In this document: positions 8,795 to 62,000 of the stretch, one piece after another
How positions within the stretch are numbered: the first letter of the stretch is position 1
Layout: each line of letters starts with the position of its first letter
NCBI GenBank assembly: GCA_965649765.1
Contig: OZ287752.1
Coordinates: forward strand, 21,328,001 to 21,392,000
Direction: 5' to 3'
Source: Bispira polyomma
Lineage: Eukaryota
Length of the DNA stretch: 64,000 bases
Made by a program: the position numbers and the translations under genes
Notes under the pieces: generated by a model
The model's input: the letters and a program-made list of their open reading frames with translations, nothing else
What the model was told of the DNA's origin: nothing
Databases searched by the model: none

Positions 8795-9700
8795 AACATG
8801 TGGTGTAGTGGTACCACACTCATCTCCCACCTATCCAGTCGTAGGTTCCAATATCAGCCCTGGGCCTGTATTCACTAAAGTTCTTATATTTAGAATAAGA
8901 ATTTTTGATATTCACTAAAGTTCTTATACTTAAAATTTTTGCTTATTCTTAGAAAGCTTTAATTCTAAGAATGGTCAAGACCTTACTTAAGTTAAGAAAA
9001 AGACATAGGGCTGTATCCACTAAAGTTGTTATATTTACAATAAGAATCATTCTTATACTTAGAAAAAGAATCATTCTTATACTTAGAATAAGAATCAATC
9101 TTATACTTAGAAAATTTTCTATTCTAGTATATTATTATACTTAGAATAAGAATTTTCTTAGCTAAGAGTTGCACAAAAGATTGCCCTGTCTTTTTCTTAA
9201 CTTAAGTAAAAATTCTAAGTATAAGAATTTTTATAAGAATAATTCTAAGTATAAGAGTTTTTCTAAGAATAATCCTAAGTATAAGAATTATTCCAAGTAT
9301 AAGAACTTCAGTAGATACCCAAAATTTTTATTCTAATTATAAGAACTTTAGTGAATACGGCCCCTGACACTCTTATGTATTGCTTTTCACAATTCTTAGT
9401 TAAGAAAATTCTTATTCTAAGAATAAGAAAAACAAAATTCTTAGAATAGTAAATTTTCTAAGTATAAGAATGTTTCTTATTCTAAGTATAAGAATAATTC
9501 TTATTCTAAGTATAAGAATTATTCTAAGTATAGGAACTTTTGTGAATACGGGCCCTGGAGTGAATGTGGGAAAGTTGAAGGCCAGTGGTTTTTAGACTTA
9601 AAAGCATTGAATATCTACCCTCTGATTTCCTACACCAGTAAGCTGCACTTTGTGACATGACACAAGGCATGTTGAAAGTAACATACACACTAAAACAACT
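8795..9700 (+). mobile_element. Meta-like SINE split by a MITE (SINE parts about 8795-8862 and 9555-9700)
   Basis: The tRNA head (TGGTGTAGTGG ... GGTTCCAAT) resumes after the MITE as GAGTGAATGTGGGAAAG...TTTCCTACACCAGTAAGCTG...GTTGAAAGT. Confidence 0.7.
8863..9554. mobile_element. PIF/Harbinger-type MITE with palindromic repetitive interior
   Basis: TIRs GGCCTGTATTCAC (8863) and GTGAATACGGGCC (9542-9554); 3-bp CTG TSD (8860-8862, 9555-9557); interior made of TTCTTATACTTAGAATAAGAA repeats in both orientations. Confidence 0.85.
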
Positions 9701-11880: not shown

Positions 11881-14800
11881 CAGTGTCCAGGGTTTCAGAT
11901 ATCAGCAAGTTAATTTAACAAGACAAGACAGGGAGTGCGGTTAAGAATAGTTTATTAACACTGTGTTAATATATATATGCAGTTTTGTAAGATAGGCACA
12001 TGTTCACCTTAAATGAAGGTTAAGGTTAACCTTAAGTTGAGTCAAATGTCATCCTACAGGTGAGGGTTGACATTAAAGTGAGTTACAGGTCACCCTACAT
12101 TGAGTTTAAGAAGTATAAATTCAAATGACTTTAAATGAAATGATTTTACCATGTTGAAAACTATGAGGTAACGTGCGTAAGGTAAGCCCAAAGCGTTACT
12201 GGCCTCAGTGCTGGGGTACCAGACCAGAAAGTTGGAGAGGGGATTTTTGGCCCAGTATAAAAAGCGCCCACAATTGAAATTCTCCCGCCTTTCGAGTAGG
12301 GCCTGTTGGGGGATGGATTATATATACTGATATATTAACTTCAGCACCCTCCTCTTGGTCGTTTGCGGTTTAATGGACAGTTTAACATCTCAGCTGTTGT
12401 ATGAGGCTATGACAAACAATTAGTGATTGAACCTCGAGTGGTGAGGGTTGCTGTGGAGTCTGGATCATCCTGTGTTTTCTGGAATTCTCTGGATCATCAG
12501 TATATCTGGATCATCAAGTGGAGGTTCCGACTGCACCTATGTTCTATCAATGTAACATCAATTATTAAGAGTCCCCCGTTGTAATACTGTCACCCAAGGT
12601 TAATGTTGTGAGTGTAAAGTTTTTGACCATTTGATCATAATTATAGCATATCCTGGATTAAACATGAGGTCCGCTCTGGCCAAGTGTGCCAATGGTAAGA
12701 AAGTACTGGCTGAGTGGGGGCACAAGTTAGACATCCTGAGGAAGCTAAAAAGATTGTCAGATACAAAGCCTTAAACACGTGGTCCATGTACGTCAAGTCA
12801 CATTTTTGTACCAATCTTTTAAGCAGTGTAATGTCAAAAGACACTTCAATTTGGCTTGCAGAGGCCTATTAAGTAGTAATGCCCTGTTAAAGTAAGCAAA
12901 AGCTTTTATATCCATACTAAACAGTATACACTGGGCCTTAATCGCAGACAAATGGTTAGCTACTTGGGAAGCAGAGACATCATTTTGCACTAAAAATTCT
13001 AAATATGACAGAAATTGGAACGCATTCACCTTTAAAAGGGGCCAAGCCATAAAGACCCCAAAGGCTAAGAATAACTAGTACATTATTGGTACGCCTTGGT
13101 GGTGGAAGGAGCTTGGTGAGAACTGTCTGCACTGTATTTCTGTCTACAATTAGGAAATATAAACTGTCTAAATATTATGGTTTACTTTGAGTCTGATTTT
13201 ATTGTATTTATTTAAAAAATTGAAAATGTATTCATTAAAGTATTCATGAATATGAATACATTTGCAATGTATTCGAATAGGAATGCGAATACTTTGCCAA
13301 AAATAGAAATGTATTCGAATATGAATACGAATGCTTTAAAAAATGTATTTGAATGCATTCGCATACGAATGCAGAATACGAATACCCCATGCCTGCTTTG
13401 AGAATACTTTCATGGGTTGGCAACCACTGCACAGGCCCCGCCAGATAAAACAAAAGTGCATGATTGTCTGTAGTCTCCGTCCACCTGGACAGCAAATCTG
13501 CAATGGTATTCTTTTTACTCAGAATATGTATAACATTTAATTCAATATCCGACTGGCTAGCCAGCATGAATATATTTCTGCTATACCACTTCGCCATACA
13601 CTCACCATGGCTTGATTGTCACACTTAACAAGAACCCTTTGCCCCTGCCAGGTCTTAGCCGACAGTTTGACAGCGACTACAATATTTAACATTTCGAGGT
13701 ATGCGATATTATCATTTTGCATACTACTTTGTACTTTTATGTCATATACCTGGTTGCCATAGATTCCTCCCATACCCAACTCAATTTGAGCCGTTACCGG
13801 CTTATGGTGGAAAAAGAAGACCCCATTAACCCGATCTGTAAAGGTATGGAACCAATTCAGGTCACGTCTGAAATCCAGAGTAATTGGAAGTGGTTTTTGC
13901 TATAATTATTTCTTACAAGTTCTAATATCCGGATAAGGAAGACTTGTGCATACTTGATACATTTGGCTATATAAAAATTTATTCTGACGTACTGTCAGAC
14001 CAAGTTCAGTTAGTAACTCTTGCAATCTGTCATAAGATTTGTGTATTTTACTGGGTACCGATATTGATAAAAAATCAATGTAATTCTGTATCACATGACC
14101 CTCTGACCTCATTATTTAATCGTACAGCGTCTGACAGACGCTGAAAAATCGTGGATCCGTTTTGTTAGCCAAAGGGTATCGATTTATCGATATAGTAGGA
14201 TTTCTATTTCAAACCCAGGAGGTCAACATCACAAGGGTCGATAGGCTTGTGCCGGAACGCCCTGCTGACATCAACCTTATATATGAGACAGCTCTTTCTA
14301 CATTTCAACCCTTCTTAGGTTAACCCATCTATTGAAGGATACGAGAATATAAAGTCCGTGGGAGTAAACCCAAAGGAGAAATCACTTTGTGCTTCCCATT
14401 GTTGGAAAGTCTTGTCCCCTTTGGCCTTTGATATCAAACTCATTTTATTTCTTTTCACCTTCAGTTTACCACAATACTTGTCCTCAGCTACAATGCACTC
14501 AGCATGTTCATTGTTACTCCAATTCCGCTTTCTCTTTTGTCTGATACTTGTTGTGGCCGGTTTAGGAGAGACTATTGTTTTCCCCATGCTGTCACTGCTT
14601 TCACACCTTTTATCAGCTGGGGGGGCAAACCCATTGCTTGCCTGGCTGTCACTTTTACACATTTTACCAATTCGGAAGGCAAACCTAGGTGTGCCCGCCT
14701 GTGTGGTTATTGTTACATTTTTTACATTGTTAGTTTTATGTACAATGGCCCCTGCCACTTTTCTCTCACTGGTGCGACTTTGTTTCAAGTTGTCACCTTT

Positions 14801-16256
14801 TGGTGGGTTGTTTCTAATTCCCTTACCCATTTCAATTTTCTTAACTCCCATTTGATTTTGTCTACCTTCCTACCCATTTGACAGGCTATAACGCCTTGGT
14901 TTCCACCTTGTTTTTTAACCACGTCAGTACAATTGATACTTGGTTTTCTAACTTTCAAATATTGACACATTTTATTTACAACATTTTTATCCAAGACTTG
15001 AAAATCTCTGCAACTAGTGTTGTATATTACTCTATCATAGGTTTTCTTCGCCCTGTTTACATTTCCACTGCATTTTTGCAGTGGCCTCTAGTTTTTTAAT
15101 TTTTCTTGGTACAAGAATTTGTTTTATGTGCCCCTTCACACGTTTCACATATATACTTATAATATTGTCCCCCCGTTTTGTGGCTGGAAGGAAACTTACA
15201 GGTACCCTCTTGATAGAACTTAGACAACATTAACCCTGTTTTTGTTGCACTCGCTTTACTACCAGTAGAACCCTTTGTTCCTGAGCTATGCAACGTCCCA
15301 TTACTCATATGTCTCTGGGCATGTGCCCTTCGGATTCGATCGACCTTGTCAATGTCCACCCAATTTAGCCTATCTATTTCCATGTTGGTTAAAACCACTG
15401 CATGGCAAGCCTTGGCTGCCTCCCAGAAAAAATCCTGGGCATCCTCCATTAGGTTTGCCATGTAGTCCAACATGGCCGCTTTAATCTCGACATTTACTTT
15501 CTCCTGTATAATTTTTGTAAACCCGAAGACCCACTGAGCCAAGGTGAGATCATCATTTGAGTGTCTAGCTTTAAGAGTTCCCGATAAAACGTGATTCTGA
15601 GGTCATTCGACCACTCTTTTCACAAACACGCTTGAGTTGCCCCCACATTGCGAAATGGTTCCCTGAGCCATAGCTCAATCTGAGCCTTAATTTTAATGTT
15701 TTGTTTAAGGAAATTAATACTCGGGATAATACTCAACTCGCTACTTGGTTGGCCGTCGCCAGAGTGTACAGAGGACACATTATATAAACCTATACTGGCC
15801 TGATCTTTTAAGGTGGTCGCCAACACCACATCCGTAAATTGCAACCTTTTGTCCATTTTTTTCAGCATTTTCGTCATGCTCATTAACTGATTCAAAATAG
15901 TATGAGAAACCTCACCATTTAATGTAGCACTAGACAGGATCAGCTTCCTCAGTAGGTAAGTCCAGCAACATAGGACAATTCTGACCTGTATGTTTCTGTA
16001 GACATTTACTACGGTGAACTAGCTTAACACGTGGCATGTTTAGATCAAGTTACAGATAAAATCTTAAAATAGGTAACAATTTAAAAGTTTAAAAGAGCTA
16101 AAGCCAGGCTATTAAAACTTGTTGTTCTGTACACTCCCCGACTCAAAAGGCGGAAGAATTTGGGCACTTTTTATATTCGGCCAAATATCCTCCTTCCCAC
16201 TTTCTAGTCTGGTACCCCAGCACTGAGACAAGTAACGCCGGGGCATTACCTTACAC
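11881..16256 (-). mobile_element. YR retrotransposon 1 (Ngaro-like gag/RT-RNaseH/YR), degenerate
   Basis: gag remnant 15096-16040 (MEDAQDFFWEAAKACHAVVL, CCCH finger); RT remnants (YKVDVSRAFRH, NYID); RNase H (LEMLN, CDN, ADLLSRW); YR remnants 12620-13143. Precisely interrupts the LINE. ~125-bp inverted repeats at 12175-12300 and 16135-16256. Confidence 0.9.
13240..13396. mobile_element. Short MITE-like insertion rich in GTATTCGAATA palindromes inside YR element 1
   Basis: Repeated GTATTCGAATA/GAATACGAA motifs with end CCCCATGCCTG; interrupts the end of the RNase H frame. Confidence 0.55.
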
Positions 16257-17785
16257 TATGGCTCCTTCACACCCCAAAATTGTTTCCAGGTCCTGTAAAA
16301 GCTTTCCAGCTGCCTCACATCCAATGAATCTTGCATGAATTATTTTAAAACAGAATTTCTACTCCAAACATCATCGGGAAAAGGTTCTAAAGTACTTTCC
16401 AGCAATTCTCCTCGATAACAGCACTGTTCCTGCTGACAGTGCCAAAAACCTGGGAGTTGCTATTGACTTTGATTTCTCCTGGGAGTTGCTATTGACTTTG
16501 ATTTCTCCTTTAAAAAACGTGCCTCCGACATCTGTCGATCCTGCCACTGCAATATCCATGACTTTTGTAAGATTCATCAGCACCTAATGCCATGGTCACA
16601 CTGAGCTTGTGATTCGCTTACGCAAATACAAATGACAAACGTAAACGCTGCATTAGCGTTTGCGTACCAAACGTAAAAACGTATGCTTGCATAAGACCAA
16701 AATGGACCAAAAATTGGAAATTTTAAAAAGTGTCTTTTTTTCGGACTGCTCGAAATTCCTTACGTTTTTGAAATTTTAACCATTTGCATAATGAACGGCT
16801 TTAAAACATAATTAAAACAAAATTGAAGCGCATTTTGCATAATTGGACGTGATTGAAGCGGCCCTAAACGTGTTACACAAGACGTTCCATTGGGTATGAG
16901 TCGTTTATTACACATTGCACCCGTTTTTATAGCAATTTCTGGTCAAAAATCAATATTTTCGTTTGACCCGTTATGCTTGGGTAGTGTACGCACACCCCAT
17001 TTGTTATTTCGTTAAACCCGCATGCTATTTTGTTCAACCCGTTTATCAAGCTGTTTAGTTTTTTTCATTAATTTCAATACGCTTCCATTTTGTTCACAAC
17101 GCTGTTACTTCATTTGATTCTCTTGAGTCGTCACAATTTTGTTTGTTTATTTTGTCGTGACGTATGCGGGTGCTTTTGTCATTTGCTCAATATGTCATCA
17201 AATGTGTCATCCGCTATTACGAGGCACCATGCTCTTGCATCATTTGAAATTTACAGTTTATTGTGCGGGGTAGACCCGCAGGGGCTAGTTAGTTCAGTGC
17301 TAACCGGTATTTTCCTTAACTTACACTCTGGGTTCATGACCTATCAACCCCTTTTCTTATTCGTCAGTGTGTACTAATTAACCCCACTTTTCCCGCTTTT
17401 TCCACAGAACCATCACTTTTTACATTGAAGTCAAATAGGCAACAACGCCATCTTTAAAATTTTACTTTTACTTTATGTTTATGTTTTATACTTACACTTT
17501 AATGTGGTTTTTATATGTACATGAACTCTGGAATGTTACCAAAGGATTTACTGTGATATGCTACAAACTAAGGAAGGAATCACGGACTTGCTGCTGTTTT
17601 ATGTGTCGACTCGCACTTTAGAGTCTTGCGAATATATGCTCGATCGAGCGCTAGTACAGGGACGTATCAATTCAAAATTGGCTTAATTGCTTCTTATTTT
17701 ACTCTTGAAGTTCACATCTATATTCTCCCTATAAATATATCCGCAGGTATCTAAGGTGCGCGTTCTTTGTGTTTACTTAGAGGCC

Positions 17786-18760
17786 ATGGCGCCAAGAAAA
17801 CAGTATGACTGTTCTAAATGTGGCTTTGCCCACGCGAAACCCATAGACGATAACTGTACCGGTAATACTTCAGTGGAAGAAGAGGTAGAAATGCAGAACT
17901 CTGTTCCTAGTGATGGTGTGACCTCAACCGAAATTAACTTGCAAATACTCACTGAACTGAAAGCTTTAAGTAGTCGGATTTCGAAGGTTGAAGAAAAGGT
18001 TGATCACAGGGAACATAGAGCCCAGTTCTCGGGGGCAACTCCGGGTCTGGATAGTCCTGTCCAGAAGTCCCAGGCAGCCCAGCTAGAGGAGTTATTGGTC
18101 CCGACCTTGCAGACCTTGAGAACATCCCAATCCCTGCAGACTGCTGTCGACTCACATTTAAAGGAGCTAGTCCAGATTAATGAATCAGGTACGTGCAAGT
18201 CACAACGTGGAGGCACAGAGACGGTTTGGGTTAAGAACAAAGTATCCTGGCCACAAAGTTACATACTAGGGGGACACAATAAATCTAGAGTCTCTTATGA
18301 CTCCCTTTCTATGTCTCAATGGGTGGCTGGTTTTGCCACCATTGCTAGGGAAGAGTCTGATGTTGATACTAAAAATAATATGTTAGAGTACTTAGCTGAT
18401 CTCATGGAAGACGCTCATGACTTTTCTTGGGCCTCTGCTAAGGGCAGCCATGCTGTGCTTTTGTGCAAGATGGAGGAAGGGAAAGTGTCGTGGGGAGATT
18501 CCCATAAGTTGGATCGAATAAGAAGGGCTCATGCTCAAAAGATAATAAGTCAAACTCAAACCAGTAATAGCAACCCCAAGAAAAGTCATGAGAAGCCCAT
18601 TCCTTGTAGATACTACCAAAAGGGTACTTGCCCTCACAAAGGTGAGCATGAGACTAGAGGAGTAACATACAGTCATGTCTGTAGTGAATGTCACAAAATT
18701 GGTCGCTCGTACTCTCATCCCAGTAAAGATTGTCGCAAAAGCTCAACAAAAAACGATTAA
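17786..18760 (+). CDS. Gag-like ORF1 of YR element 2 (N-terminal CxxC..H..C knuckle, coiled coil, C-terminal CCCH/CCHC fingers)
   Basis: Strong Kozak GCCATGG at 17786; CSKCGFAH...C; CRYYQKGTCPHKGEH, HVCSECH...HPSKDC. Confidence 0.9.
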   Translation: MAPRKQYDCSKCGFAHAKPIDDNCTGNTSVEEEVEMQNSVPSDGVTSTEINLQILTELKALSSRISKVEEKVDHREHRAQFSGATPGLDSPVQKSQAAQLEELLVPTLQTLRTSQSLQTAVDSHLKELVQINESGTCKSQRGGTETVWVKNKVSWPQSYILGGHNKSRVSYDSLSMSQWVAGFATIAREESDVDTKNNMLEYLADLMEDAHDFSWASAKGSHAVLLCKMEEGKVSWGDSHKLDRIRRAHAQKIISQTQTSNSNPKKSHEKPIPCRYYQKGTCPHKGEHETRGVTYSHVCSECHKIGRSYSHPSKDCRKSSTKND

Positions 18761-21303
18761 GGCACTGCAGTATTGCAGTGCCCGCTCTCTTATCTTCTGA
18801 AGCTGCAACAGACTGGGTCAACAAGGGTTATTCTGGTAAAGTGTCTAAGTTTCATACTAGAACTGTATATAGTAGTAAGGATCAGTATGGCAGCACTTGC
18901 TGGAAAACAGATTGGGCTAGGTATCAAAACAAGTCCTATGCTGATATTGTTAAAACAGGCAAACTTGTAAATAGTGATATCAATAGTAAATGTGTGAAAC
19001 CACTGTATAAACATGAATATATGTCGCATGTGTTGAAAGATGTAACCACCAACAAAATGTCAGGTGGAGCAAACAATGGATTTTTTCCCCGAAAAACCAT
19101 TACTCGTGTACAAAGACACAGGCCCAAAACCCTCAAATCACAAACCCATGTAGGCGCTCACAACCTAATTAATATCACTCGCCAGGAACCAACAAGGGTT
19201 TGTGCCAAGGTTAAATTTAGTCGCCTGAATAGCCCTGAGGGAGGGCAAGTAATCACTAATAAGTGTAAACCTGTCCACAAAATCCAAAAATGCCCCTCAA
19301 TCAACACACAACAATGGGTCACACCCACAAGTAACAAATTTGCACTCCTGCAGGACAATGGTTCCTCTGGGGGTACCCTGGCCAGTGATATTACCGACCG
19401 ACATGCTCCCAGTACTGATAATGGTTGTAGTACACGAGGCGCACAATTCCAAGCAAATACTAAAGTGAGCAAAAGTTGCAATGTACCTAAATTAGATAAG
19501 TATGACTTGGAATTGCAAGTAAAACCTAAAACACGGGATCTAATTAGAAAAGCAAAGGATGAACCCCAGTTCCAGCAGTGGAATGATCAAAACTCGGATA
19601 AATATGGTTTTATACCACTTGGTAAGCTTCGACTTCCCATGACAGATAAACGAGTTAAATCAAACAACACTTTGCTGGACTTACATAGCGTTATTAAAGA
19701 CCAGAACTGTCCCAATTTTATGGCCCCTCAGATAGAAATACAATCGGAATTAAATCCGGATGTTTGGGAAAAATACCTAGTCCATTATTGGGACAAACAG
19801 CTCCTATTCTTAATTCGCTACGGTTTCCCCCTTGACTTTCAAAAAGGCAGTAAGCTCTCGCACACAGAGAGAAATCACCAATCCGCGACCCAGTATCCGG
19901 ATGACATCAAGGCGTACCTAAACGAAGAAACAAAATTTGGTGCCATGCTGGGCCCCTTTGAAAGTGTTCCAATTAAAGACCTCCATATTTCACCCTTTAT
20001 GACTAGAGAAAAACCGGGTGGGGCTCATCGGCGAGTCATAGTAGACTTAAGTTTTCCACATGGAGAGTCGGTAAACTCGGCTGTAGCCAAGGACAACTAT
20101 TTGGATACTGCTTTTGCCCTCACCCTTCCCACTATTGATACTATTACTAGCAAAATTGCCTGTTTAGGCAGAGGAACGTTACTCTATAAAATTGACGTCA
20201 GTCGGGCGTTCCGTCACGTGAAGATAGACCCGGCTGACTACAACTTGTTAGGACTAAAATTGGGAAAATATTACGTAGACTCATTTCTACCCTTCGGATT
20301 TCGGCACGGGAGCGCCATTTTCCAACGCCTAAGTGACGCGGTTAGGTATATCATGCAAAATCATGGCTGTGACGTCACCAATTACATCGACGACGTAATC
20401 GGTTTTGGTGACATCACGGAAAGCAAGCGTTCATTTGACCTACTGTATAACCTATTACAAGAACTAGGTTTTGCTCTCAGTCACAAAAAACTGGTGCATC
20501 CCAGCAGTGCAGTCATATGTTTAGGTGTATTAGTCAACACGGTAGATCTAACAGTCTCCCTTCCGGATGAGAAACTACAGGACATCAATGCCCTAATTCA
20601 AGACTGGCAAAATAAAAAAGTATGTACTAAGCGAGAATTACAGTCCCTCTTGGGCAAACTTCTCTATATTTCAAAATGTGTAAGAGTCTCAAGGTTGTTT
20701 TTGAACCGCATGTTAGACGTCCTAAGATCAGTGGGAGCCAGTCAGAAGATTCAGCTCACACCAGAATTTTTCCAGGACATAAACTGGTTCACAAAATTTC
20801 TACCAAAATTTAATGGCAAAGCCTTCTTTGAGCATGAGCCTGCCACTGATTGTATTCAGTTAGACGCTTGCCTGCAAGGGTTGGGGGGGCGTTGTAACGA
20901 CGAAGTATATGAATTTTCTATTCCTCTAGGCTACCAAAATATGACCATAGTCCACCTTGAAATGCTTAATATCCTGGTGGCTATTAGGCTCTGGAAATCC
21001 ACCTGGGCAGGCAAAAGACTTGTAATTCAATGCGACAACGCTGCTGTAGTTATAATCTTGAACTCAGGCAAAACAAGAGACCTTACATTAGCAGCTATTG
21101 CCAGAAACATATTTATGGAGGTGGCTTCTGCTGACATTAGCCTTAAAACAATTCATATATTGGGTAGATTAAATACTGTGGCTGATCTGCTATCTAGATG
21201 GCACATCACCACAGCCAGTAACCAAAAGTTAGAAGAATTGATTCGTAACCCCCAATGGCTCAAGGTTCCACCTAGCATGCTAGAAATAGATTGGTCTATT
21301 TAA
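18730..21303 (+). CDS. Pol: reverse transcriptase plus RNase H of YR element 2
   Basis: KIDVSRAFRHV, LPFG, YIDD; RNase H LDACLQG, HLEMLN, CDN, ADLLSRW; no Dam-methylase domain follows. Confidence 0.95.
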   Translation: MSQKLNKKRLRHCSIAVPALLSSEAATDWVNKGYSGKVSKFHTRTVYSSKDQYGSTCWKTDWARYQNKSYADIVKTGKLVNSDINSKCVKPLYKHEYMSHVLKDVTTNKMSGGANNGFFPRKTITRVQRHRPKTLKSQTHVGAHNLINITRQEPTRVCAKVKFSRLNSPEGGQVITNKCKPVHKIQKCPSINTQQWVTPTSNKFALLQDNGSSGGTLASDITDRHAPSTDNGCSTRGAQFQANTKVSKSCNVPKLDKYDLELQVKPKTRDLIRKAKDEPQFQQWNDQNSDKYGFIPLGKLRLPMTDKRVKSNNTLLDLHSVIKDQNCPNFMAPQIEIQSELNPDVWEKYLVHYWDKQLLFLIRYGFPLDFQKGSKLSHTERNHQSATQYPDDIKAYLNEETKFGAMLGPFESVPIKDLHISPFMTREKPGGAHRRVIVDLSFPHGESVNSAVAKDNYLDTAFALTLPTIDTITSKIACLGRGTLLYKIDVSRAFRHVKIDPADYNLLGLKLGKYYVDSFLPFGFRHGSAIFQRLSDAVRYIMQNHGCDVTNYIDDVIGFGDITESKRSFDLLYNLLQELGFALSHKKLVHPSSAVICLGVLVNTVDLTVSLPDEKLQDINALIQDWQNKKVCTKRELQSLLGKLLYISKCVRVSRLFLNRMLDVLRSVGASQKIQLTPEFFQDINWFTKFLPKFNGKAFFEHEPATDCIQLDACLQGLGGRCNDEVYEFSIPLGYQNMTIVHLEMLNILVAIRLWKSTWAGKRLVIQCDNAAVVIILNSGKTRDLTLAAIARNIFMEVASADISLKTIHILGRLNTVADLLSRWHITTASNQKLEELIRNPQWLKVPPSMLEIDWSI
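18748..18782 (+). promoter_or_regulatory. Programmed -1 ribosomal frameshift signal (A AAA AAC, 6-nt spacer, 9-bp hairpin)
   Basis: The heptamer is in the correct gag phase (ACA AAA AAC GAT TAA), pol is in the -1 frame, and the stem-loop is GGCACTGCA-GTAT-TGCAGTGCC. Element 1 has the same layout (15065-15097, minus). Confidence 0.85.
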
Positions 21304-21311
21304 TTTTACAG

Positions 21312-22303
21312 ATGTACCCTCAAAGTTAAGACGTATAGCTACTCAAGCCTCACGCAGAACTCACCAAGCTTTTAGACCAGCCACTGAGCGGGCTTACACA
21401 AATATGTTTAGGATTTTCTTAGCCTTCTGCAGTTTTGCTCAGGTCAGGCCTCAGCTTATTTCTCCATTAATCATTCTGGCTTTCTTAGAAGTATTGGTGG
21501 TCAATAACGTTTCCTCTCCATCTATAGCCAATTACTTGTCGGCGATTAAAGCCAAAATGGCCCTATACGGCCTTGATGTGGGAGCTTTCGCAGATCTCAG
21601 AATTAAATATTACCAAAAAGCCTTAGTGTTAAACAGTCCCTTTAGGGCTAAAATAATAGCCATTATAGACATCCCACTTCTGCAACAAATTGTGCACACA
21701 TGTGATAGTATGTACATGGGGTTAGTTTTCAAAGCAGTGTACTTAATTGCATTCTTCTCCTTTTTAAGAATATCTAATTTGGTTCCTCATGCGGTTGGTC
21801 AATTCTCTCCTCTAGTACAACTAGCTCGGGGGGACGTGTTATTTGCCCCCCCTGGCCTTCATATCATAATAAAATGGTCTAAAACATTGCAGGCCAAAAA
21901 TGTCGTAAAAGTCCTGAAAATTCCCACATTGAATGGTTCACCCCTCTGCCCAGTGGCAGCCACAAGAATCTTGTTAGCAATTACCCCAGGACATAAAAAC
22001 TCCCCCCTCTTTCAATTCAAAAAAGCCCAAAAATGGTTTCCTATGATAGATTCCCAGATTAGAAAAAACCTCTCTCTCATACTTACCCGACTGGGTTTAC
22101 AGCAATCCCCCATATCCTTCCACACCTTCCGTCGTTCAGGTGCCACTTTAGCCTTTAACAGTAATGTACCAATCCAAGATATTCAGAGTCATGGCACCTG
22201 GACCTCGGATTGTGTGTGGAAGTATATCGTTCAGGACCACAATGCCTCTGACCAGGTGGCCCTGTCTTTCAAAGCTCTACTCTCCAACCCCACTACCTCC
22301 TAA
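21312..22303 (+). CDS. Tyrosine recombinase of YR element 2 (frame open from the splice acceptor at 21312; first ATG at 21404)
   Basis: Catalytic R (FLRISNL), K (WSKT), HxxR (HTFRRSG), HGTW and Y (VWKY). Confidence 0.95.
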
Positions 22304-22840
22304 TTGGGCTTTGGGGCTCTATTCCCACACCTTTTACAATATTAATATATACTTAAATGTTAAACATAAATCTTTTGGGCCACCTTACCACCTTATTTCA
22401 TCTTAAATCAATTCATTACATGTAATAAATATACTTTGGCAACCTTAACTGAAACTAAGGTTACCTCCTAATTCAAATTTTCAATCTACCTTACCTAACC
22501 ATAAGTTTTAGGCTAAGGTAACCTTAAACTCACTTTGAGGTAACCCTAACTTCAAGCTAGGGCTACCTTAAACTAAAAATTTTCCCAACCTTAATCTGAA
22601 AATCCTCAGGCTAAGGTCACCCTAAACTTTTTTCTCAGGTTAATCTCTTGGTGGTAGGGTGGCCCTCTTAACATAGTATGTAAATAAATGTTAGATATAA
22701 CATAGACGCATTAAACTAATATCCCCAACTCTGCCTTTTTACTTACCCGTGTCACATACCATATTAGCTTCTAGGGTAGGGCACTGTGCACGGAAGTTTT
22801 ATAAAACTTTATAACAGTTTTTGTCCCCCATTTGTAAAAA

Positions 22841-32465: not shown

Positions 32466-35286
32466 TGTTGAAAAATCCAGTGAACAGTAGAACAAATTTA
32501 AGTAATGAGGAAAATATGTACGATCGACTCCTATATATACCCCCAATAACGGCTACAAAATTGTACCCTGCAGAAGGGAAACGTCCCATACATATTTAAT
32601 GCGTGAGAGACAAGATGAATGAAACTGAAGCGAAACTGAAGCATAATTGGAGCATGCTTGAAGCATGAGGAAAGCGGCTAAAGCATAACAAACGGATCCC
32701 AAACAGAATGGGCGGGATCAAAACGTAAACTAGACGTCAGTAATACGTGACCAAAACGTATTAAACATTTCCGAACGTGATAAATAACATGCCCGACGTG
32801 ACAAGCGTGATTTAAACGGCAGCTAAAAATCACATTCCATGCGCGTTAATATACGGGGTAAGCGGGAAGTAAACGGTTTAAACATGTCTGAAGCGGCTTG
32901 GATGTAATTTTGGGCTTATGCTCATTTACGCTCAAACAATGGACTCGTTTACTTGCGTTTTCCTACATTTGCAAAAAAAACGTAAGCGAAACCTACTCAG
33001 TGTGATCACGGCATAAGTCAGGCATGCTGTTAGAGTTAAAAATGTCCCAGTGTCAAGTCGACTTGACTACTGCATCTCACTACTATGCACACAAAACCTT
33101 TCCTTAATTGCCCTGGCTGTCTTGAGTTGTGTATTGAATTCAAGGTAATTGTCCTACTTTTTAAGACCGACCATAAGTGCAGCAACCTGCCTACTTATCA
33201 TCCATGCTGCCTCTCAGCTATCTTACCAGAGGAAACCGTCTCCCCACTTATGGCTTTAAACCCAACAAACTGGCTGGTTCAAAATCATTTAAGGTTGCAG
33301 CACCTGCTGAGTAGAATGGTAGTCTTCGAACTGAACATTTGTCTCCTGGTCACTACTCAACTTGGATCACAAGCCATGTCTCTTACGGGACTATTCTTTT
33401 GCTTATTGAATTGTATGTGCACCTCACATTTTTCCTTGGTAAAGATATGAGGGTCAAATTAAAGGTTAAGGTGGTGAATATGTGTATGTAAGTAAAGTCA
33501 GTGAAACTGAAGTTTTAGGTATTTATTATCGTTATGTTAGAAGTAAGTATGCACAGGTAGGGTTTAAAAAGCATTTTTTTTAAATATGACAATTTTAAAA
33601 ACACTCAAGCCAAACTAAGAAAATTCAGGTATAGAAGAGGCAAAGGTGACGGGGACAGCAGAAGAAGCTTGATAATTTTGATAGAGACATGACCAGACGA
33701 CAAAATATCTCTACAAGCCATCTGCCATAATATTTTGGAGAGAAATATTATTATTAAAAGCAAAAGTTGGCACTGACCTTCTAAAAGTGTGAAAACTATT
33801 AGTTAAGGGGTATTCCCACATGTGTGAGGACTGAACCCAAGGCTGAACGCACATGTGTTTTAACTATTGGGAAATGAGGTTCAGTGGCACTGCCAAACAG
33901 AGAATCAGAGGATAATATAATGGTTCTCGAACGGCCTTTACTGGACACAGTATCCAATTTTTAAGTGAAGGAATTTGCATGATGTGAAAATGAGATCTAG
34001 TCTGCTGATCAAATGTGATTGAGGCTGGCCAACTATGACGTCTTTCCTTAAGAGGAAATTACGTGTTGGGTCAAACTTGGACCTTATCACTTCTGAACCT
34101 TGAGATTCGGACAAATGCAAAAATAAGCTAATAGGAAAATAACCCTGAATAGAGGGGAGTCACCAAGTCTCTGTCCTAGTATAACTTCGTGGCCATGTGT
34201 TTGATAGCTGCCAAGTAATTGTTAATCATGTTAAAAGAAGATCAAGTCTGAACTAAATGTTCCAATTAAATGTAATGAATGTTTTGAACTAGTTATTGTA
34301 GGTCATTGCAGTCTTGGGACGTAGAACACAGTTAATTCTCTGCCATGCTGAGGCTGTGAAGTTTTGGCTGATGTGGTTAGAACCTATAATTATATATTCA
34401 AATCAAAGTTGAAATAGTGTAATAGAATAGTGTGCCACGTACAAGAATCACTTAAGATGTTGACCCTCTGAGGGGGTTGGTCAGAAAAAAAACTTGATAG
34501 TAAGTCAGCTATAACATTTTCTTGACCGTTAACATGTTGAATTTTAATTGTAATGTCATGTGCAGCTGACAACAAAGAGCCAAAAAATCTTCTTTTGTCG
34601 TATTGGACCTAATTACCAGGACTACAGCCATATTATCATATTATGCGTTTATGGCTCTACTGCTCACCCCATACCCTTAAAATTAGAAGCATGTTAAACA
34701 TTTCGATAGACAGATATGGATAGAATTTGGCCATAGATGTTATATAGTGGAGTAGCATATACCTGATCTATGTATACTGCCCCTAACCCTGTAATGCCCC
34801 AGTCACCCTGCGGTTATAACCATTTAGAGATCTATGACCTTAAAATCGAAGGAAAACCATCGATCACTAACGATTCCCTAGGATCTTTGCAATATGTTTT
34901 GGTGGCACTCACACATATTTTAAACTTTTTGGGGGTTAGCCACCGGTCGCCTACCAGTCATACGATGGCCCACATTCGATCAACGGCAGCTCTCTGGAGG
35001 TTGTAGCGATTATGTGAGATCTGTAAGGACTTGTTGTGTGATGGTCGGCTACTAACAAAGACCTCGGTGCAATTGTCGGCGTCCAGTCTGAGATTGTCAT
35101 GCGAGTATCAAAGACTTCTCGCTGTTTATCGCACGGTGATCCTTACTGGTGGCACCTCTATTAAAGACCTATCGAGGATCAAACCTCATCTGGCTATAAA
35201 TACCGGTACCAAAGCAACCACTACTCATTATGCATTTAGTTATTGAGCAGTAAACATATCAGATTTAGTATAAGATATATTATAAG

Positions 35287-36087
35287 ATGGCATTTGTCGG
35301 ACCAGCAGCAAAAGCCCAAATCTTGGCTGTAAGAAGGCATCAGCAGCAGCGGCAGGCAGCTGGCCTAGTCATGCTGCTATACTTTAGGAGTAGGAGAAGG
35401 AGAGCAAGGCAGTATTGGGTCAGGCCCTGGATCAGCAGGCGTCTGCAGTTTGGCAACTATGACAACCTCATGCTAGAGCTAGAATCATATACCTCAGAAT
35501 GGAACCACCTATGTTTTGAGAGTTGCTACGGAGGATGACCCTCCGACTGACCAGGAAGGACACCAACTGGAGGCCTACCCTACAGCCTGGCATGAAGTTG
35601 GTCATCACCCTGAGGTACCTTGCATCTGGTACAGCTACCACAGCCACAGTCAGATTGTTCACTGTTCAACAACTCTGACCTGAAGACAAATATTGATAAT
35701 GAGACACTTGGTCTACCACCTGTTGAGTTACTTCCAGGTGATGTTCAGGACATACCTTATTGTCTTTGGGTTGGCCACTTACATGATGAAGCCATTTTTG
35801 CAACGACAGATGACAGATGAAGAGAGAATATTTAACTACAGGTTATTTCGTGCCCGAAGGATTGTTGAGAATGTCTTTGGTATCCTCAACAATATGTTTC
35901 GTTCCTACTGACTACTCTTCAACAAGACCCAGAAACTGTTGAGTCAATTGTGTTGGCATGCATTTGCTTACACAATCTAATGTGGAACAGGTATCCAGCA
36001 TTGCAGAATGCGGGGATGGATCATGAGGGAAACAATCACTAAGTTATTCCTGGAGCCTGGAGAGATGAAGCTGTCTTAGGAGACTGA
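35287..36087 (+). pseudogene. Harbinger 2 transposase, internally deleted
   Basis: YWVRPWISRR, LVITLRYLASG, IFNYRLFRARRIVENVFGIL and ACICLHN; the GAIDG segment is missing. Confidence 0.9.
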
Positions 36088-40900: not shown

Positions 40901-42529
40901 CTGATGAAGGACCGCCTCACCGTAGGTAAATCCAGCTTGGGTTTGCAGGTTATACTCTGCTAGTCTTTCATTCACCATTACCTGGACGTCTGGCAGGGTT
41001 ATGGTCTAATCCTGTTATCAGCATAGTTGTTCCTGGTGAGAGACCTGTGTGTTGGCTGAGGTGGCAGACTCATGGTACTGCTCACGGACGCGGCCAGTAG
41101 TGTAGCCATTAATGGGTTAAGACACAGGGATGCTCTATGTATACTTGAATCTCTAGCTTCAACTCGGTCCAGTATGTGGGTGAGTAACGCGTTGGATTCT
41201 TCTAAGCGTCTGAGTATGGTTAACATCTCAGTCCCGGTTAGTTGAAACGGCAGGGTTCGTCGGGAGGTCAGTGAAATTAGACAGGGAGGATTGCTGCAAA
41301 GTGTCCTGGTTGAACGGACATCTAAGGTCTGTTACAATGCTGTCATTTATATAAATATGCTTACCACCCCTTTTTCGGTGATTTTCTTGGTAGATTTTTG
41401 TGGCTTCCCGTCTGTTGCCGGAGTTTTCTTTGAATGCCTGAGTTTCTTTTCCGATGTCTTTCCCATCCTTTTATATATAATGAACATGTAAAAATGAGTA
41501 GTATTTTAAAAACAAACTAAAAAATAAAATACTAAAAACTGAAGGAATTAATAGAGCCTTCATCAACTTGGCTTTATAAAAATGTCCGAGGCTGTCTGGT
41601 CATCGATTATAGTGTTATATAAGTAAAACCATTAACATTTAACCTTTTCGCTATCCCATATGTATATTATGTTATATATAGCACTATCTGGGATCTTTGA
41701 CTTAAAGGGCTGTCGCAATATCCAGATAATAGCTCCAGACTGTCCTAATTGTACAATCGAGAGCCAATCGGGACACTCGGGAAGTTGCCCCAACTGATCG
41801 GGGTCAATCAGGACACTCGCGGTCACTCGTGCAAAATAACTAACATGTTAGAAAACCTTTGCGATTGGATGATATCTGCGATTGGATGATATCGGAGTCG
41901 ATTGTGGTGAATCGTAAGCTGCTAACGAGTTATCTTAACCTTATAATGACCTATTTTTTGGATCTCCATCTAAATCGGGAGAAAATTTGACATTTTGAAA
42001 AAGATTAATCGTCCATCCCTGCCGATTGGTCGAGAGCACACTTCTGATTGGTCTGGAGCACCCTCCTAATTGGTTGGGAGCACCCTCCCGATTGGTCAGG
42101 AGCATTACGAGTTATCATTTACTTGTTCCGAGTTATACTGTCAAATGTTAAGGATAGGTCATTAGTAATGTTCCAAGTGTAAAGATTACTTGGGAATGTC
42201 ATAAGGATAAGTCGTTACTAAGTTTCCGATTGTAAAGATAACTTGGGAGAAGCGGCCGATAAGTTGTTAGGAAGCCTCGACTGTGAAGATAACTCAGGCA
42301 GATTAGTGATAGGTCGGAAGGAACAAAAGATAACTCGGGAGTGAAAGCGTTGACTCGGGAACAAATTGTGGGCGGAAGCAAACTGTATAAAAGGAAGACG
42401 GCACACTCGTTTTTCATCAGAATCATCCCAGCTTTCACAGAGTCAAGATCTACTTGCAATTTTTGTGATATATAATTATAACAGGATTTTATTTTTCTTA
42501 TAAATAAAAATTGCAATAATGCCAGGAAA

Positions 42530-56083: not shown

Positions 56084-59000
56084 ACAGTTCTATGTGGTGA
56101 AATGTGAAGGTCAAGTGAAAGGTCAATGTAATGAAGTCTTGACTAAAGTCTAATAAAACTAAGGTTTGAGGTATATATTTTTCTATACATAAAGTAAAAA
56201 TGGGTATGTACAGGTAGGGGTAAAATAAGCAATTTTTAAAATGTTCATGATTTTAAAAACACCCATCAGAATAGTGATCACAACAAAACACAAGTAAACA
56301 CAGAGGAATATAACCTCCAATAGTAAAGCAGTGTATTGGTAAACCAATTATCTGAGGCCTACACCAAGGCAAACCACTAATAATTCAAGATCATAACGGC
56401 CCCCTAAAGCCCGTGATCACAAGTGTACATTATTACAAGCCAACAAACTATGTTAACAGTTACATTATTACAAGATTATTCGTTTCCAGCAACCGGCTAG
56501 TGAACTGGAGAATTAACATTTGTTAATTTGCTTATACATGTTCCTAAATTTAAACAGTCAGTGTTTTATTATATCACATGCAGTTGGATATTACACCACT
56601 ATTATCTGAAGTTATAGAACTCGGGACCTGAGGCACCTAATTGTCTAGCAGGGGCAGATCCCCTCTCACAGAGCTCCCTCCGGTAGCCCACACCAACAGT
56701 AAAGGTTATGAAAGAGGACCTGTCTTCACACAGTTCCGAGTTCAAACTTGCCACAATCCATTCAGAATTCAAAAGCTGCCCATAGGATGCTGCATTACCA
56801 GACCTGATCTGGTCATAGACCTTACATGTTTCTAACACGTAATATGTAAAATTTGACCAGGCATAAATTTTTAAAAATACACCTTACTATAAATTTTATA
56901 ACAGCTCTGGTAAGGGGAGGAGGTGGGAAAAAGTATGTGTTATGCTGTTGCTTCCTTTTCCAATATGGATGCCAAAAAGGTAGCATGAAGTTCAGCTTTT
57001 GGAGGGAATCTCTCTGATTGGCTGTGAGTTAGCATGCTATTGAAATTGTAGTAAGGGTCCCATTCGCTAGGGGTTAAGGTAGTAGCTAACATTTATGTGT
57101 AATGACCTGAACTAGCAGACCCCTATTGGGTCGGGTGATGCACAGTTCTATGTAGTGAAATGTGAAGGTCAAGTGAAAGGTCAGTGTAATGAAGTCTTGA
57201 TTAAAGTCCAATAAAACTAAAGTTTGAGGTATATATTTTTCTATACATGTTAGTAAAAATGGGTATGTACAGGTAGGGGTAAAATAAGCAATTTTTAAAA
57301 TGTTCATCATTTTAAAAACACCCAAGCCAAACTAAGAATTCAGGGTATAGCAGAGGCAAAAGTAAGGGGAACAGCAGAAGTAGCTTCAGAATTTTGATGA
57401 AGATAGGACCACACAGCAGATGACCTCCAAAGGCCGTGGGCCATTATGTTTTGGAGGGAAACATTATTATTAAAGGCAAAAGTAGCACCTGACATTTTTA
57501 AGAGTATGAGATGTGTGTTCCTTAAGTGGAATACCCACATGAGTGAGAACTGAGGCTAATGCTGAATATTTTTTTTTGAATTGGGATATTTAACGTCCAC
57601 TCTAGTACCTGTTTAGATTATATTGGGACGGGTAGTTGGAAACGCTGGAGGAAACACTGCATACAGTTGATCAAGGTTCTACACTGAAACCAGCGGCCCA
57701 CGGTTAGGAGCTACAACCTTTTCCACATGGGCATCGACGGGATTCGAACTCACGCTGCCCAGAGGTGAGAGACCAGTGATTGTGAAGCGCAATATTTGCT
57801 AACCACTAGGCCACCGCGGCCCTGAGGCTAATGCCGAACGCACATGTGATTCTACTATTGGAAAGTATGGTTCAGAAGTCTTCGTGACAGTTTGAATGCC
57901 AGCATAGCAATTAAACGCTATGAAAGTCCTGAATTGGTTATTGTAGGTAATCTTGGTCTTTGGACGAAGAGCACTGTTGATTTTGTGCCATGCTGAAGCT
58001 GTGAAGTTCTGAGTGATGTGGTTTTCACCTACAATTAAATATTGAAATCTAAGTTAAAGTAATGTAATGGAATGTTTAACCATGTACAAGATTCCGTTAA
58101 AATATAGACCTGGCCCCTAATGGGTGGTTGATCAGAAAACAATCTTGATAATAAGTCAGCTATGACGTTTTTCTTACCCTTAATATGTTGAATTTCGATT
58201 GTAATGTCAAAAATTGCTGAAATGAGCCAAATGTTTCTTAAACAGAGTGCCAAAAATTTATCTTTACTCTTAGTCGACCTAACTACTAGGACTACAGCCA
58301 TTTTGTCACAGTTTACGACTATGCGTCTATGGCTCCACTGCTCACCCCAAGCCCTAATAGCTAAAAGAATATTCAGCATTTCTATATGTACAATGGACAG
58401 GTGCTTATTGTATATATTATATAACGGTGTCACATATACCTGATTCATATATATTGCCCCCAATCCTGTGAGGCAATCGCCGATGAAAACCTCGTTCTCA
58501 TGCTTCTGTACAACAGGCTCAATAAATGTTACGCCATTGTATAGAGAAAAGAATTTGGTAAACCAAATTAAGTCAGCTTTCATTTCATTTGAGATTTTAA
58601 ACCATTTGGCCTGACTATTGCGCCTAAATGCCATTAACAACCTATTAATGAAAATGCGAGCCGGCTTAACACATTTGTGTACATGGAGTAGTTTACCGAG
58701 TATGGATTGAAATTTCATATCCATGTTTTGTGTACTACTTTAGCGCAAATTCAAATGTTTCTTTAATTTTTCCTGATGTAATGCTAATAGTGCCTTTTTC
58801 AATGTCAATATCTATACCAAGACATGTAATTTGTAAACTAGGTTTTGAAATTTTTTCTGGGTGGGAGGCCTAGTCTGGTAACTAGTTGGTCTAAATCAGC
58901 GAATGCTGCGTCTGCTTGTTCTGCAGTTGAAATACCTACGTAATCGTCGATGTAGCAAAAAATTATGTGGTAAAAATTCTTATCAAGGGTGTGTGCTATT

Positions 59001-62000
59001 ACGTCAGAACAATGCTGAAACGCGGCCGAGCCGTGTACCCAGCCGAACGCGACCTCAGGATCAATATACTTCTGCCCTTCGAAGTGAATGCCTAACTTCA
59101 TTGCGTCAACTGGGTCTACTCTTAGGTTTTGAAACGCTCGGGCCACGTCCAGCTTGAAAATCTTAGGATTATGTGTGTTTTGAATGTGCTCCACGATGTC
59201 ATCAATAGTCGGAAATTTCAGAATAAAATCTACCCCATCAAATTTCTGTCTATTAACTTTGCCATTATCCGAACCATTACTGGGGTGAGAAAGATTCATT
59301 ATTACTCGTCTTTTAGGCGGGTGAGCAGTGGGGAACAGTGGAACAAATCACTAAGTATTTCTGAGCTGGGACCTAACATTGCTCCACACTGTTTTTCCTT
59401 ATCAATGTATTTCTCAATTGCTGCCTTATGCTGAAGTGCAGAGTGATGATTAGTCGTATCCTTAACTTGTAAAGTATTAGTATCTTGCAATGAAAGGGGG
59501 AACCCGAATTTTATATATTGTATAGGTAACTCATCTGGATAATCTACTAGAATGTCTTCCCATGCCTTAACGTTTAGTCCTGAGATTAAGGGGATCCTTG
59601 CACTTCTGTAGTTGGGACATTCCGTGTCCCTATTTATCTGTGCTATTTCAGACATTTTTTGTGTGAAAGTGATGTGTATGGGGGCCCTGTCGGGTCCTAT
59701 AAATTTAAACTTAGTTTCTGAAGTAGTCAAAAAACCTTTGGTATCTGAGGATAATTAATGTCCCTAACTACACTGTTGGACTCTACAGTATCATAAGTAT
59801 CACCTTTGTGACAGGATGTAACTGTCTTGACCTCTATTGGTCTGTCATTGCTGACGGTACATGTTCTATTAATATCCATATTTGACAATAATTCATCAAT
59901 AATGTTGGTTATATGCGCTGTATAATCTACATTATGTTTATCTCTACAACTAACATCTTGCTGGTAATTATACCATGCATTAAGTGCTAATTCTTTATCA
60001 TTTAAATTTATCTGTTGAACCATGTGTCTGTCGCCATCTCTGTATGTCAGTAACTGGGAAAGAGAAAGTGAATTTGCAAGCCAACTAGTAATAACCATTT
60101 CCCCTGATGGTGGGTGATTACATTTAGCACATTGGACTTCTTGATCAATTTCCCCATCCCCCCACATTATAAAACCCTGAAAACTGCTTTTTCACATTAT
60201 ATGTGTACCACAGATAGTTCCTGATTACAGTTTGGGACATAATACAGCCAATTAGTGACAGAGATGACTACACTCACCTTGGTCCCCTTTGGGCTACCAT
60301 ACACGGTGTCATTCTCCACAACATTCACAAAATTCAAATAATTTGATCTTGTGTTTCCTTCACACTCATAATCAGCAACCTCACCAGTATTAACGCCTGT
60401 GTCTAGAACAACTTCACAGTCTGAGTTAGAATTGTGTGCAAGTATATTTTGGTTTACATTGTTTCCAAAACTAGATAACCTGTCATTCAGCTCTATTCCC
60501 ATGTCAGTGTATTCAGAATCACTAGAGTATTTGTGCCCATAATCACTGCACTTGGTACTTGAACTTCGGTTCAGTACACTACCTTTGTCACTAGTAACCC
60601 CGTTACCCTTTATGACCTTACTGTCATACTGGTGAAGTTCAATTTTCCTTTTATAGTTAGTGATATTATCTACACATCTATTAAATAACAAATCATCATT
60701 AGACTTAGTTTCAAAACTCTATCAACATGATTTACTAAAAAATTTTTATGTTCTATTTTACTATGATTAACTTGTGTCCCTAGTCCTAGCAGGTGGTCGA
60801 AGACCTAGTGATTAGAAACTTGTGTCGGATTCGTCTGCTTGGCTGAATTCAATTTATAACATTTGAATTCTGGGTGGTAAACGTCTTTGTGCAAAACAGT
60901 GGTGCAGTGCCAACAGACATGCTTATATTGGCTGTGTTCTGACTTGTGTGAATATTTTCCGGAATTATAAAGTTTACAGATGGTTTTCATTGCCCCATTA
61001 CAACTGTGGGTAGAACTGGTACTCTTAGAATTGATTATAGCTAGTCGAGATGCACTCAGGCGGTTCAGCACCCATTGGGTGGTGTCACCCTACGCTAGTC
61101 TTCCTTCTTCTATCTCAGTCATACTAGTGGCCCAGGCCGTGCGAACGACCTCCCAGGGCAATGAGGATGTGTCCCGGAGGGCCAGTATCACCTGCTGGAT
61201 CATTTCTCTAGATATCGCCAAATCTGTGACCTGCATCGCATTAGCCAGCTGACCAGATGCCCATTGAGGTAGAGTTAAATTGTCAAAAGCAGGGCGTTTC
61301 CGTGCCGACCCGCCCGCCCATCTAAACTTAGGGTTGCTAGTCAGAATATCTGTAATATTGAATCTCCCGGATTTCTATCGGAGGGCTGTCTTACCTTGAA
61401 CAAGTTGTATTTCACGAGTCTCTCATTAACCATGGCTTGCACGTCGGGTAGGGTTTTCAAGATGTCCGCCTTTGGAACAATCCCATCTGTGGTGTAATCA
61501 GTCCGGCTGTGAAGATCCGAAGTAGGTAATGTCGGATGAACCGAGACACTGCTTTGCAACGGAACCTGAGAGGTGACACACTCAGGAGCAATGCTGGCAG
61601 GTACTGTGTTGTGATGAATGGGTCTGTGTACTGGTGGTGGTATCATAGCACTGGTAGCTAATGAGATCTGAGACGTAGCACACTGAGAAGTGGGGTTTGG
61701 CAGAGCTGGCTGAATGTTTGCTTCCCTTGCTTTAACATGGGCTAGTCCATTACCAAGGTCAACGTTAGATTGCTCTAGCCGCTTAAGTATAGCAAGCATC
61801 TGGGAATCTTGGTTGGCTGATACTGAAGGGTTGATAACTTGGACTTGAGTGGTAGCCGGAGATGCGTGCTGTGAAACAGCCTGATCAAATGGACAACTGA
61901 GGTCGGTAACGAGATTGTCGAATGCCTTGTTATGCTTACCCAGACGTCTACTGGTGCTTTTCCTTACAGATGGTTTCTTGGAGGGAATCTCACTGATTGG

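Follow-up and report, generated by a model that had tools for sequence, protein, structure and literature searches.

A predicted −1 frameshift signal and putative recombinase splice sites in a tyrosine recombinase retrotransposon of Bispira polyomma

In the retroviral plan of gene expression, Gag and, by frameshifting, Gag-Pol are translated from unspliced RNA, and a third gene is expressed from a spliced RNA that skips pol. Here we analyzed a tyrosine recombinase (YR) retrotransposon, designated element 2, which lies in a 64,000-nt window of the Bispira polyomma genome (GCA_965649765.1, OZ287752.1, positions 21,328,001-21,392,000, forward strand) and carries a candidate −1 frameshift signal between its gag-like and pol open reading frames (ORFs). 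The closest look-alikes of this signal are the A_AAA_AAC heptamers with stem-loops of deltaretrovirus gag-pro and astrovirus ORF1a/1b. According to the available text of PMC5009743, in which DIRS and Ngaro are not mentioned, pol lies in the −1 frame in 28 of 51 animal long terminal repeat (LTR) elements, many of which have heptamers; A_AAA_AAC ranks with the heptamers on which mammalian ribosomes shift most readily, and the usual spacer is 5-9 nt. On the translation of ORFs 2 and 3 of YR retrotransposons we found one statement, which is a guess: as quoted in the accessible part of PMC13003380, Poulter and Butler (2015) considered programmed frameshifting the probable route to the YR ORF of Ngaro. 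Fungal Ngaro elements are described, in the portion of PMC3783388 at hand, as having the YR in frame or frameshifted in all groups. No description of a slippery site, a stimulator or a splice for the expression of YR retrotransposons was found in the available portions of PMC8547959, PMC3783388, PMC6681497, PMC3266345, PMC9210276, PMC7192593, PMC5633606, PMC4157794, PMC13465315, PMC9341512, PMC12477816, PMC13003380, 10.1101/2022.06.16.496473 and 10.64898/2026.07.28.741278. The gag/pol frameshift signal of these elements seems to be undocumented; the idea of gag/pol frameshifting in them is probably not new. The founding papers of Goodwin and Poulter may, reportedly, already propose frameshifting at the gag/pol overlap. 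As a mechanism, −1 frameshifting is familiar from retroviruses and LTR elements; the novelty would lie in its seat in a YR retrotransposon and its pairing with splicing.

A profile search of the window mapped four YR retrotransposons. Element 2, of 5.5 kb, contains three unbroken ORFs, in which gag, reverse transcriptase (RT)/RNase H and YR follow one another in Ngaro order on one strand. Pfam matched RVT_1 in ORF2, together with a weak RNase H-like match, and phage-integrase families in ORF3 below the cut-off; no Pfam family matched ORF1 at cut-off, and no Pfam match to a methyltransferase domain was found in pol. ORF1 is labeled Gag-like on the basis of its position and Cys/His motifs. A sequence search of the PDB with Gag gave nothing below E 0.2, and Rfam gave no match. 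Atlas searches returned only nameless clusters of low recognition with Gag, and mostly eukaryotic clusters, the commonest being from Mollusca, with RT. The first-pass annotation had called the element Ngaro-like, which is appropriate as to architecture, namely the gene order, the short ORF overlaps and the lack of a methyltransferase, as compared with the definitions in the available parts of PMC9210276, PMC4157794, PMC8547959 and PMC3783388. Membership, however, is unproven, since the split direct repeats A1...B1 A2 B2 were not found in element 2 and, among the elements of the window, are shown only by element 3; element 1 differs from Ngaro, too, in having inverted arms. Element 2 therefore works like Ngaro without being filed as a member. 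It also differs in carrying splice signals in its family, in contrast to the frameshift into YR guessed for Ngaro in the accessible part of the review PMC13003380.

The likeness to other described systems is similarly partial. With retroviruses and Ty3/Gypsy elements, as treated in the available text of PMC5009743, element 2 shares an X_XXY_YYZ heptamer, a spacer within 5-9 nt, a 3' stem-loop and a start-less −1 pol; it differs from them in its YR-type integration and in having no protease, DDE integrase or LTR, and its stimulator would be a short hairpin, whose free loop of 4 nt is not large enough to form a pseudoknot. The proposed expression resembles the retroviral plan in that unspliced RNA would serve for Gag and Gag-Pol and a pol-skipping spliced RNA for the 3' gene. 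In contrast to that plan, the third gene is a recombinase rather than env, and the donor lies inside gag, giving a product with 134 Gag residues. DIRS1-like and PAT-like elements resemble the window elements in combining YR with RT/RNase H, and element 1, which has inverted arms, may resemble them in this (available portions of PMC3266345, PMC7192593 and PMC5633606); the methyltransferase and the often long pol/YR overlap that they carry are both absent from element 2. As to DIRS1-type repeats, 125-bp inverted arms surround element 1, none were seen in element 2, and no separate internal complementary region was found.

The gag ORF of element 2 extends over 17735-18760 and, as the first-pass annotation had claimed, ends in ACA AAA AAC GAT TAA, with the A_AAA_AAC heptamer in gag phase. 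The 6-nt spacer and the perfect hairpin with a GTAT loop described there were likewise confirmed, the stem having 9 bp. The pol frame is −1 to gag and lacks an ATG near its start, in accordance with the same annotation, its first ATG being at 19021 (codon 99). The arrangement of an in-phase heptamer, a stem 6 nt downstream and a start-less −1 ORF agrees with the canonical geometry of −1 frameshifting that had been assigned to it. A W-containing motif at pol codon 59 is common to 44 of 120 Pol homologs; as this conserved motif lies ahead of the ATG at codon 99, the translation of Pol would have to enter upstream of any ATG. The hairpin was still formed when 201 nt were folded, and the 201 nt as a whole were not unusually stable (z −0.30). 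A pattern consisting of the heptamer plus the shared stem core occurred twice in the 64-kb window, at the gag ends of elements 1 and 2, as compared to zero occurrences in 100 shuffles. A generic heptamer followed by a hairpin of at least 8 bp matched 8 times in the window, as opposed to 0.87 times on average over 30 shuffles, six of the eight matches being AT-rich and within or near repeats; weight is therefore placed on the position and the shared core and not on the geometry alone. Two other candidate mechanisms were rejected: stop-codon readthrough, as pol is in another frame than gag, and a pseudoknot, as the hairpin loop is 4 nt and variable.

The relatives of element 2 are known as proteins, and nucleotide conservation was deduced through protein readings. 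The Gag search gave 221 homologs, of which 120 were listed, and all Gag counts rest on those listed; 100 of the 120 reach the last Cys/His knuckle, as defined by pattern. The gag, pol and YR homologs may come largely from one assembly, since contigs of identical length turn up in all three lists, and their counts are not independent events, owing to shared descent; since no homolog is identical to the window proteins, at least two genomes are likely involved. The C-terminal motif x-K-N-(E/D/stop) was present in 83 of the 100 Gag homologs that reach the last knuckle, the residue after K-N being E in 65, D in 15 and a stop in 3. The residue x was S in 40, A in 20, T in 14, P in 8 and L in 1, so that S, T, A or P preceded K-N in 82 of 83 cases, as compared with 24% ahead of other lysines in the same region. 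This limitation would be expected if the codon ahead of that for Lys has to end in A. When frames 0 and −1 of one related cluster were read together, 36 of 39 bases were fixed with zero contradiction, and the deduction forced C, six A, C and then, 8 nt later, a 7-bp stem with a 4-nt loop. Nine hand-picked −1 readings in relatives were all in the element 2 register; two of them, P0442 and P0455, are natural in-frame Gag-Pol mutants. Within one 90% cluster of 13 members, 8 end in K-N-E, 3 read through the stop, 1 continues in frame into Pol and 1 runs in +1.

The gag stop was found directly after K-N in cluster 4 (8 of 10 listed), one codon past K-N in most relatives, inside the hairpin loop in cluster 2 (15 of 15 listed) and beyond the stem in cluster 1 (all 10 that reach it, of 15 listed). 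The stop thus shifts between subfamilies while the signal stays, which argues that the signal is not tied to termination. Seven homologs (P0188, P0195, P0202, P0215, P0225, P0227 and P0235) form a second group of Pol N-termini, which read K-K-R-x-x-[G/S]-C-P and then diverge; this suggests that they may use the same heptamer with a different stimulator, a proposal that has been weakly tested. In a single-frame test for stems, itself a weak one, a stem of at least 8 bp was allowed by 11 of 16 hand-picked peptides as compared to 72 of 300 controls, and in the second group one of at least 11 bp was allowed by 4 of 7 as compared to 19 of 300. Immediately behind the heptamer, 80 of the 83 relatives have GA (E or D), and in the other 3 these two bases begin a stop codon; from the conserved GA, an effect of the spacer sequence on frameshifting is possible.

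Contigs from three runs of one study, possibly the source sample of the window, were compared with element 2, with the warning that summed contig depth is not copy number. Contigs at least 85% alike piled up on the gag/pol junction: the summed depths in the three runs were 2389, 1998 and 23861 at 18757, against 408, 280 and 1050 at 18156 and 649, 394 and 1717 at 19050, so that the junction depth was about 3 to 20 times that of either flank. In run X3, nine records lose their match immediately past 18782, where the hairpin ends; a contig of 442 nt covers 18608-19049 and shows 2 differences. The most frequent change seen at the junction converts the Asp codon to Glu (18757 T>G) and leaves the heptamer and stem untouched; among the differences listed, there was no changed letter inside either. 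That the heptamer and hairpin are kept in relatives is thus supported through the protein readings (83 of 100 and the two-frame deduction) and the pile-up of contigs. Contig depth was 217-305 for element 2 and 10-15 for element 1 (two runs; depth is not copy number), suggesting that element 2 has many similar copies. Separately, matches of the DNA pattern at 1 viral and 63 metagenome loci were set aside as chance, as none of the 64 hold Gag, RT or YR.

The third ORF overlaps the end of pol by 14 nt and has no Met for its first 38 codons, and a SAM-like domain match begins at codon 24, ahead of the first Met at codon 39. Pol itself ends 34 aa past its last RNase H motif. A predicted splice donor within gag and a predicted acceptor directly after the pol stop would connect the YR ORF to the N-terminal part of Gag. 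The donor is one of the 2 best among 230 GT sites, and the Gly135 codon in which it lies is kept in 114 of 120 Gag homologs. The residue ahead of it is Q in 55, K in 23, A in 13, S in 11, T in 8 and R in 4, and that after it K in 88, T in 17, M in 6 and R in 3, all with codons starting in A; a donor pattern fits 96% at Gly135 and 0-77% at seven other conserved Gly columns. The acceptor context has 11 T in 20 nt, with no other AG for 22 nt. Of 120 YR homologs, 70 were anchored and 29 are long enough to show the acceptor pattern; the residue pair expected from YAG-G occurred at one offset in 27 of these 29, against a background of 10%, and at a second offset in 7 of 11. A phase-1 donor and a phase-1 acceptor are both present in three of the four window elements (2, 3 and 4), and the acceptor region of element 1 is interrupted. 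The putative intron of element 2 has GT...AG ends, a consensus donor, a T-rich acceptor and matching phases, and joining 18188 to 21312 leaves the frame open, giving a 464-aa product. Relative to pol, YR lies in the +1 frame in element 2 and in 5 homologs, and in the −1 frame in elements 3 and 4 and in 5 other homologs, a count that left out 4 further matches of the pattern that were an internal motif; splicing would permit such a variation, and a fixed frameshift into YR would not.

On these data, Gag-Pol is very probably made by programmed −1 frameshifting, and the recombinase is probably translated from a spliced RNA as Gag(1-134)-YR; that both hold together is a likely reading of the sequence. 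The proposal of the first-pass annotation that Pol is made as a Gag-Pol fusion is supported as the best reading, with family evidence much stronger than that of the two copies in the window; the probable splice route to the recombinase had escaped it. Most ribosomes would stop two codons past the heptamer and yield Gag of 324 aa, while a minority would stall at the hairpin, where the Lys and Asn tRNAs would slip back one base on A_AAA_AAC to give a 1172-aa Gag-RT-RNase H. A phase-1 intron (18189-21311), reaching from gag codon 135 to just past the pol stop, would take out the frameshift site together with pol, and the splice would join the first 134 Gag residues in frame to the recombinase. 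RNA left unspliced would act both as the message for Gag and Gag-Pol and as the genome.

The exact sites are defined, as a 35-nt frameshift cassette and a single predicted splice junction, between 18188 and 21312. The starts that gene callers assign to Pol and to YR in the element 2 family would both be wrong, and an N-terminus derived from Gag may have gone unnoticed on the true recombinase. The existence of a widespread YR clade with a full retroviral plan of Gag, frameshifted Gag-Pol and spliced Gag-N-recombinase has somewhat better than even chances. If it exists, the reading of the three start-less ORFs of such elements would be settled and the guess of a second frameshift into the recombinase overturned; the zinc-finger and coiled-coil region contributed by Gag could then help to bring the recombinase into the particle or to direct integration.

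Several alternatives were weighed against the combination of frameshifting and splicing. An unlikely one retains the Gag-Pol frameshift and assigns the recombinase to another frameshift where pol ends, or to a promoter of its own with a downstream start. Such a frameshift was guessed by Poulter and Butler (2015), as quoted in the accessible part of PMC13003380, and would be in line with the 14-nt overlap of the pol and YR ORFs and with the finding of no spliced product among 52 representatives. It is opposed, however, by the opposite YR frames in different families, by the absence of a heptamer with a stem of at least 8 bp at the pol end and by the 27 of 29 homologs with the acceptor pattern, and a separate start would fall behind the beginning of the SAM-like domain match. 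Splicing could instead produce Pol as well, from the gag donor to an acceptor in or just after the hairpin, the latter being incidental or splice-regulating; CAG triplets at 18776-18778 and 18809-18811 are both in phase 1 to pol, and that in the 3' arm is near-invariant across the −1 readings. We regard this as quite improbable, since another AG precedes each CAG by 8-9 nt and T makes up 6-7 of 20 nt, the corresponding values at the YR acceptor being 22 nt and 11 T, and the first CAG is buried in the stem. Spliced Pol would also leave unexplained the six A plus C in gag phase at a fixed distance, the compensated outer pair of the stem, and the seven Pol N-termini of the second group, which share K-K-R and then continue differently.

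A separate start of Pol, by stop-start reinitiation, leaky scanning or a non-AUG codon, with K-N-E serving a function of Gag, appears highly improbable. In some families an ATG can overlap a TGA stop, and 4 of 44 Pol calls begin with M-x-H-C; element 2, in contrast, has no ATG until codon 99, beyond the conserved motif, the gag stop occupies four different places, and a need of the protein would explain neither the restriction to S, A, T and P nor the forced codons. Hardly to be expected is slippage of a polymerase (RNA polymerase II or the element's RT) on the A6 run, adding a base, with the hairpin used for packaging or replication. A homopolymer run and natural one-base in-frame Gag-Pol mutants among the copies would suit it, but a C at either end keeps the run at six A. 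The 6-nt distance between heptamer and stem corresponds to the entry channel of the ribosome and not to a polymerase; it falls inside the spacer range given in the available text of PMC5009743.

Other observations weigh against the combined frameshift and splicing reading itself. On the side of the frameshift, the K-N end is lacking in 17 of the 100 Gag homologs (4 are truncated, several are in another frame and some have changed letters), the distant relative P0409 has no heptamer at its gag end, no A_AAA_AAC-type heptamer was found at the gag ends of elements 3 and 4, so that the signal is not universal in the window, and element 1 falls short of the family register by one base. The CAG in phase 1 to pol discussed above lies in the 3' arm of the hairpin. 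On the side of splicing, the donor test lacks sharpness, one of the other conserved Gly columns reaching 0.77 as compared to 0.96, and a Gag-N/YR fusion protein is absent among the 52 representatives, whose genes were apparently called on genomic DNA. The relatives share descent and may come mostly from one assembly, and their DNA was not found, a Gag alignment against metagenome, viral and prokaryote contigs giving no match.

Table 1. Positions of the elements, ORFs and predicted signals in the window.
Feature	Position	Strand	Basis or remark
Element 2, YR retrotransposon gag - RT/RNase H - YR	17262..22789	+	ORFs, domains; ends inferred
Gag-like ORF1 from ATG, 324 aa	17786..18760	+	N-terminal CxxC-H-C motif, C-terminal Cys/His knuckles
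Predicted splice donor CAG GTACGT, cut after 18188	18186..18194	+	phase 1, gag codon Gly135
pol ORF of 858 codons (stop to stop), −1 to gag	18727..21303	+	basic long N-terminal region, RT, RNase H
Slippery heptamer A_AAA_AAC, gag phase	18748..18754	+	sequence; family conservation
6-nt spacer, last gag codon plus gag stop	18755..18760	+	Asp codon reads Glu in other copies (18757 T>G)
9-bp hairpin, 4-nt loop, predicted stimulator	18761..18782	+	−15.6 kcal/mol, z −4.85
Tyrosine recombinase ORF, +1 to pol	21290..22303	+	first Met codon 39; R, H-x-x-R, H/W, Y motifs present
Predicted splice acceptor TTTTACAG	21304..21311	+	directly after pol stop, phase 1 to YR; exon from 21312
Element 1, decayed YR retrotransposon	~12177..16254	-	several frame breaks in gag, pol, YR
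Element 1 heptamer, out of gag phase	15091..15097	-	gag stop 15098-15096
Element 1 hairpin, 8 bp, shared 7-bp core	15065..15084	-	C-G outer pair
Element 3, decayed distant YR retrotransposon	~56080-62100	-	profile search
Element 3 donor-like AAG GTAAGA	61389..61397	-	phase 1, just upstream of same gag motif
Element 3 pol stop and acceptor-like TTGTAG	58029..58037	-	phase 1 to YR
Element 4, decayed distant YR retrotransposon	~33400-41000	-	profile search
Element 4 donor-like ACG GTGAGG	40915..40923	-	phase 1, upstream of same gag motif
Element 4 pol stop and acceptor-like TTATAG	34384..34392	-	phase 1 to YR

Element 1 is a weaker witness for the frameshift than earlier claimed. After about 18 codons its −1 frame is closed, and a different frame holds the next motif resembling Pol. 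The first-pass annotation had described the same spacer as in element 2, which is true up to the first paired base; measured to the CACTGCA core, the distance is 7 nt as compared to 8 nt in element 2. The covarying outer pair was found as claimed (C-G in element 1, G-C in element 2), and so was the shifted phase of the heptamer, ahead of which gag stops. In each of the three runs, 14263-15372 is covered by one contig free of differences and gaps, and the breaks and the phase shift of element 1 are therefore genomic and not errors of assembly. The statement that the surrounding DNA is unrelated to that of element 2 does not wholly hold, as gag aligns at 67% over 162 nt. The inverted arms of 125 bp (79%) that enclose element 1, at 12177-12301 and 16137-16254, are unlike what was seen in elements 2 and 3. 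Between its pol and YR, a stretch of AT-rich short repeats (13190-13400) with very high summed contig depth is probably a small inserted repeat.

The sequence TGTGC is present at both ends of element 2 and is likely its recombination core. One contig of run X3 joins 17265 to 22794, skipping 17266-22793, which suggests an empty site; the TGTGC ends and this joint would be consistent with an insertion of the element through recombination at a short core. Immediately beyond its 3' end, in DNA of high depth, lies a 121-codon ORF (22838-23203) for which no Pfam family was found at cut-off; another repeat seems to have been the insertion site of element 2. Short palindromes resembling AAGGT(A/T)ACCTT occur in the 3' regions of both element 1 and element 2.

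In element 3, the split direct repeats are located at 62106-61978 (A1), 57324-57142 (B1), 57143-56999 (A2) and 56265-56084 (B2), with about 730 nt separating A2 from B2. Element 4 (33437-40900, minus strand) is 67-73% alike to element 3 and has an interruption of about 3.7 kb within its RNase H region. A separate RT fragment at 43343-44254 (minus strand; Pfam RVT_1, E 5e-4) did not match the RT profile of YR elements and probably belongs to another class of retroelement. Elsewhere in the window, a large imperfect palindrome of short AT-rich repeats occupies 8860-9550, and a tandem array of 36-, 27- and 9-nt units at 25370-25750 has open frames on both strands.

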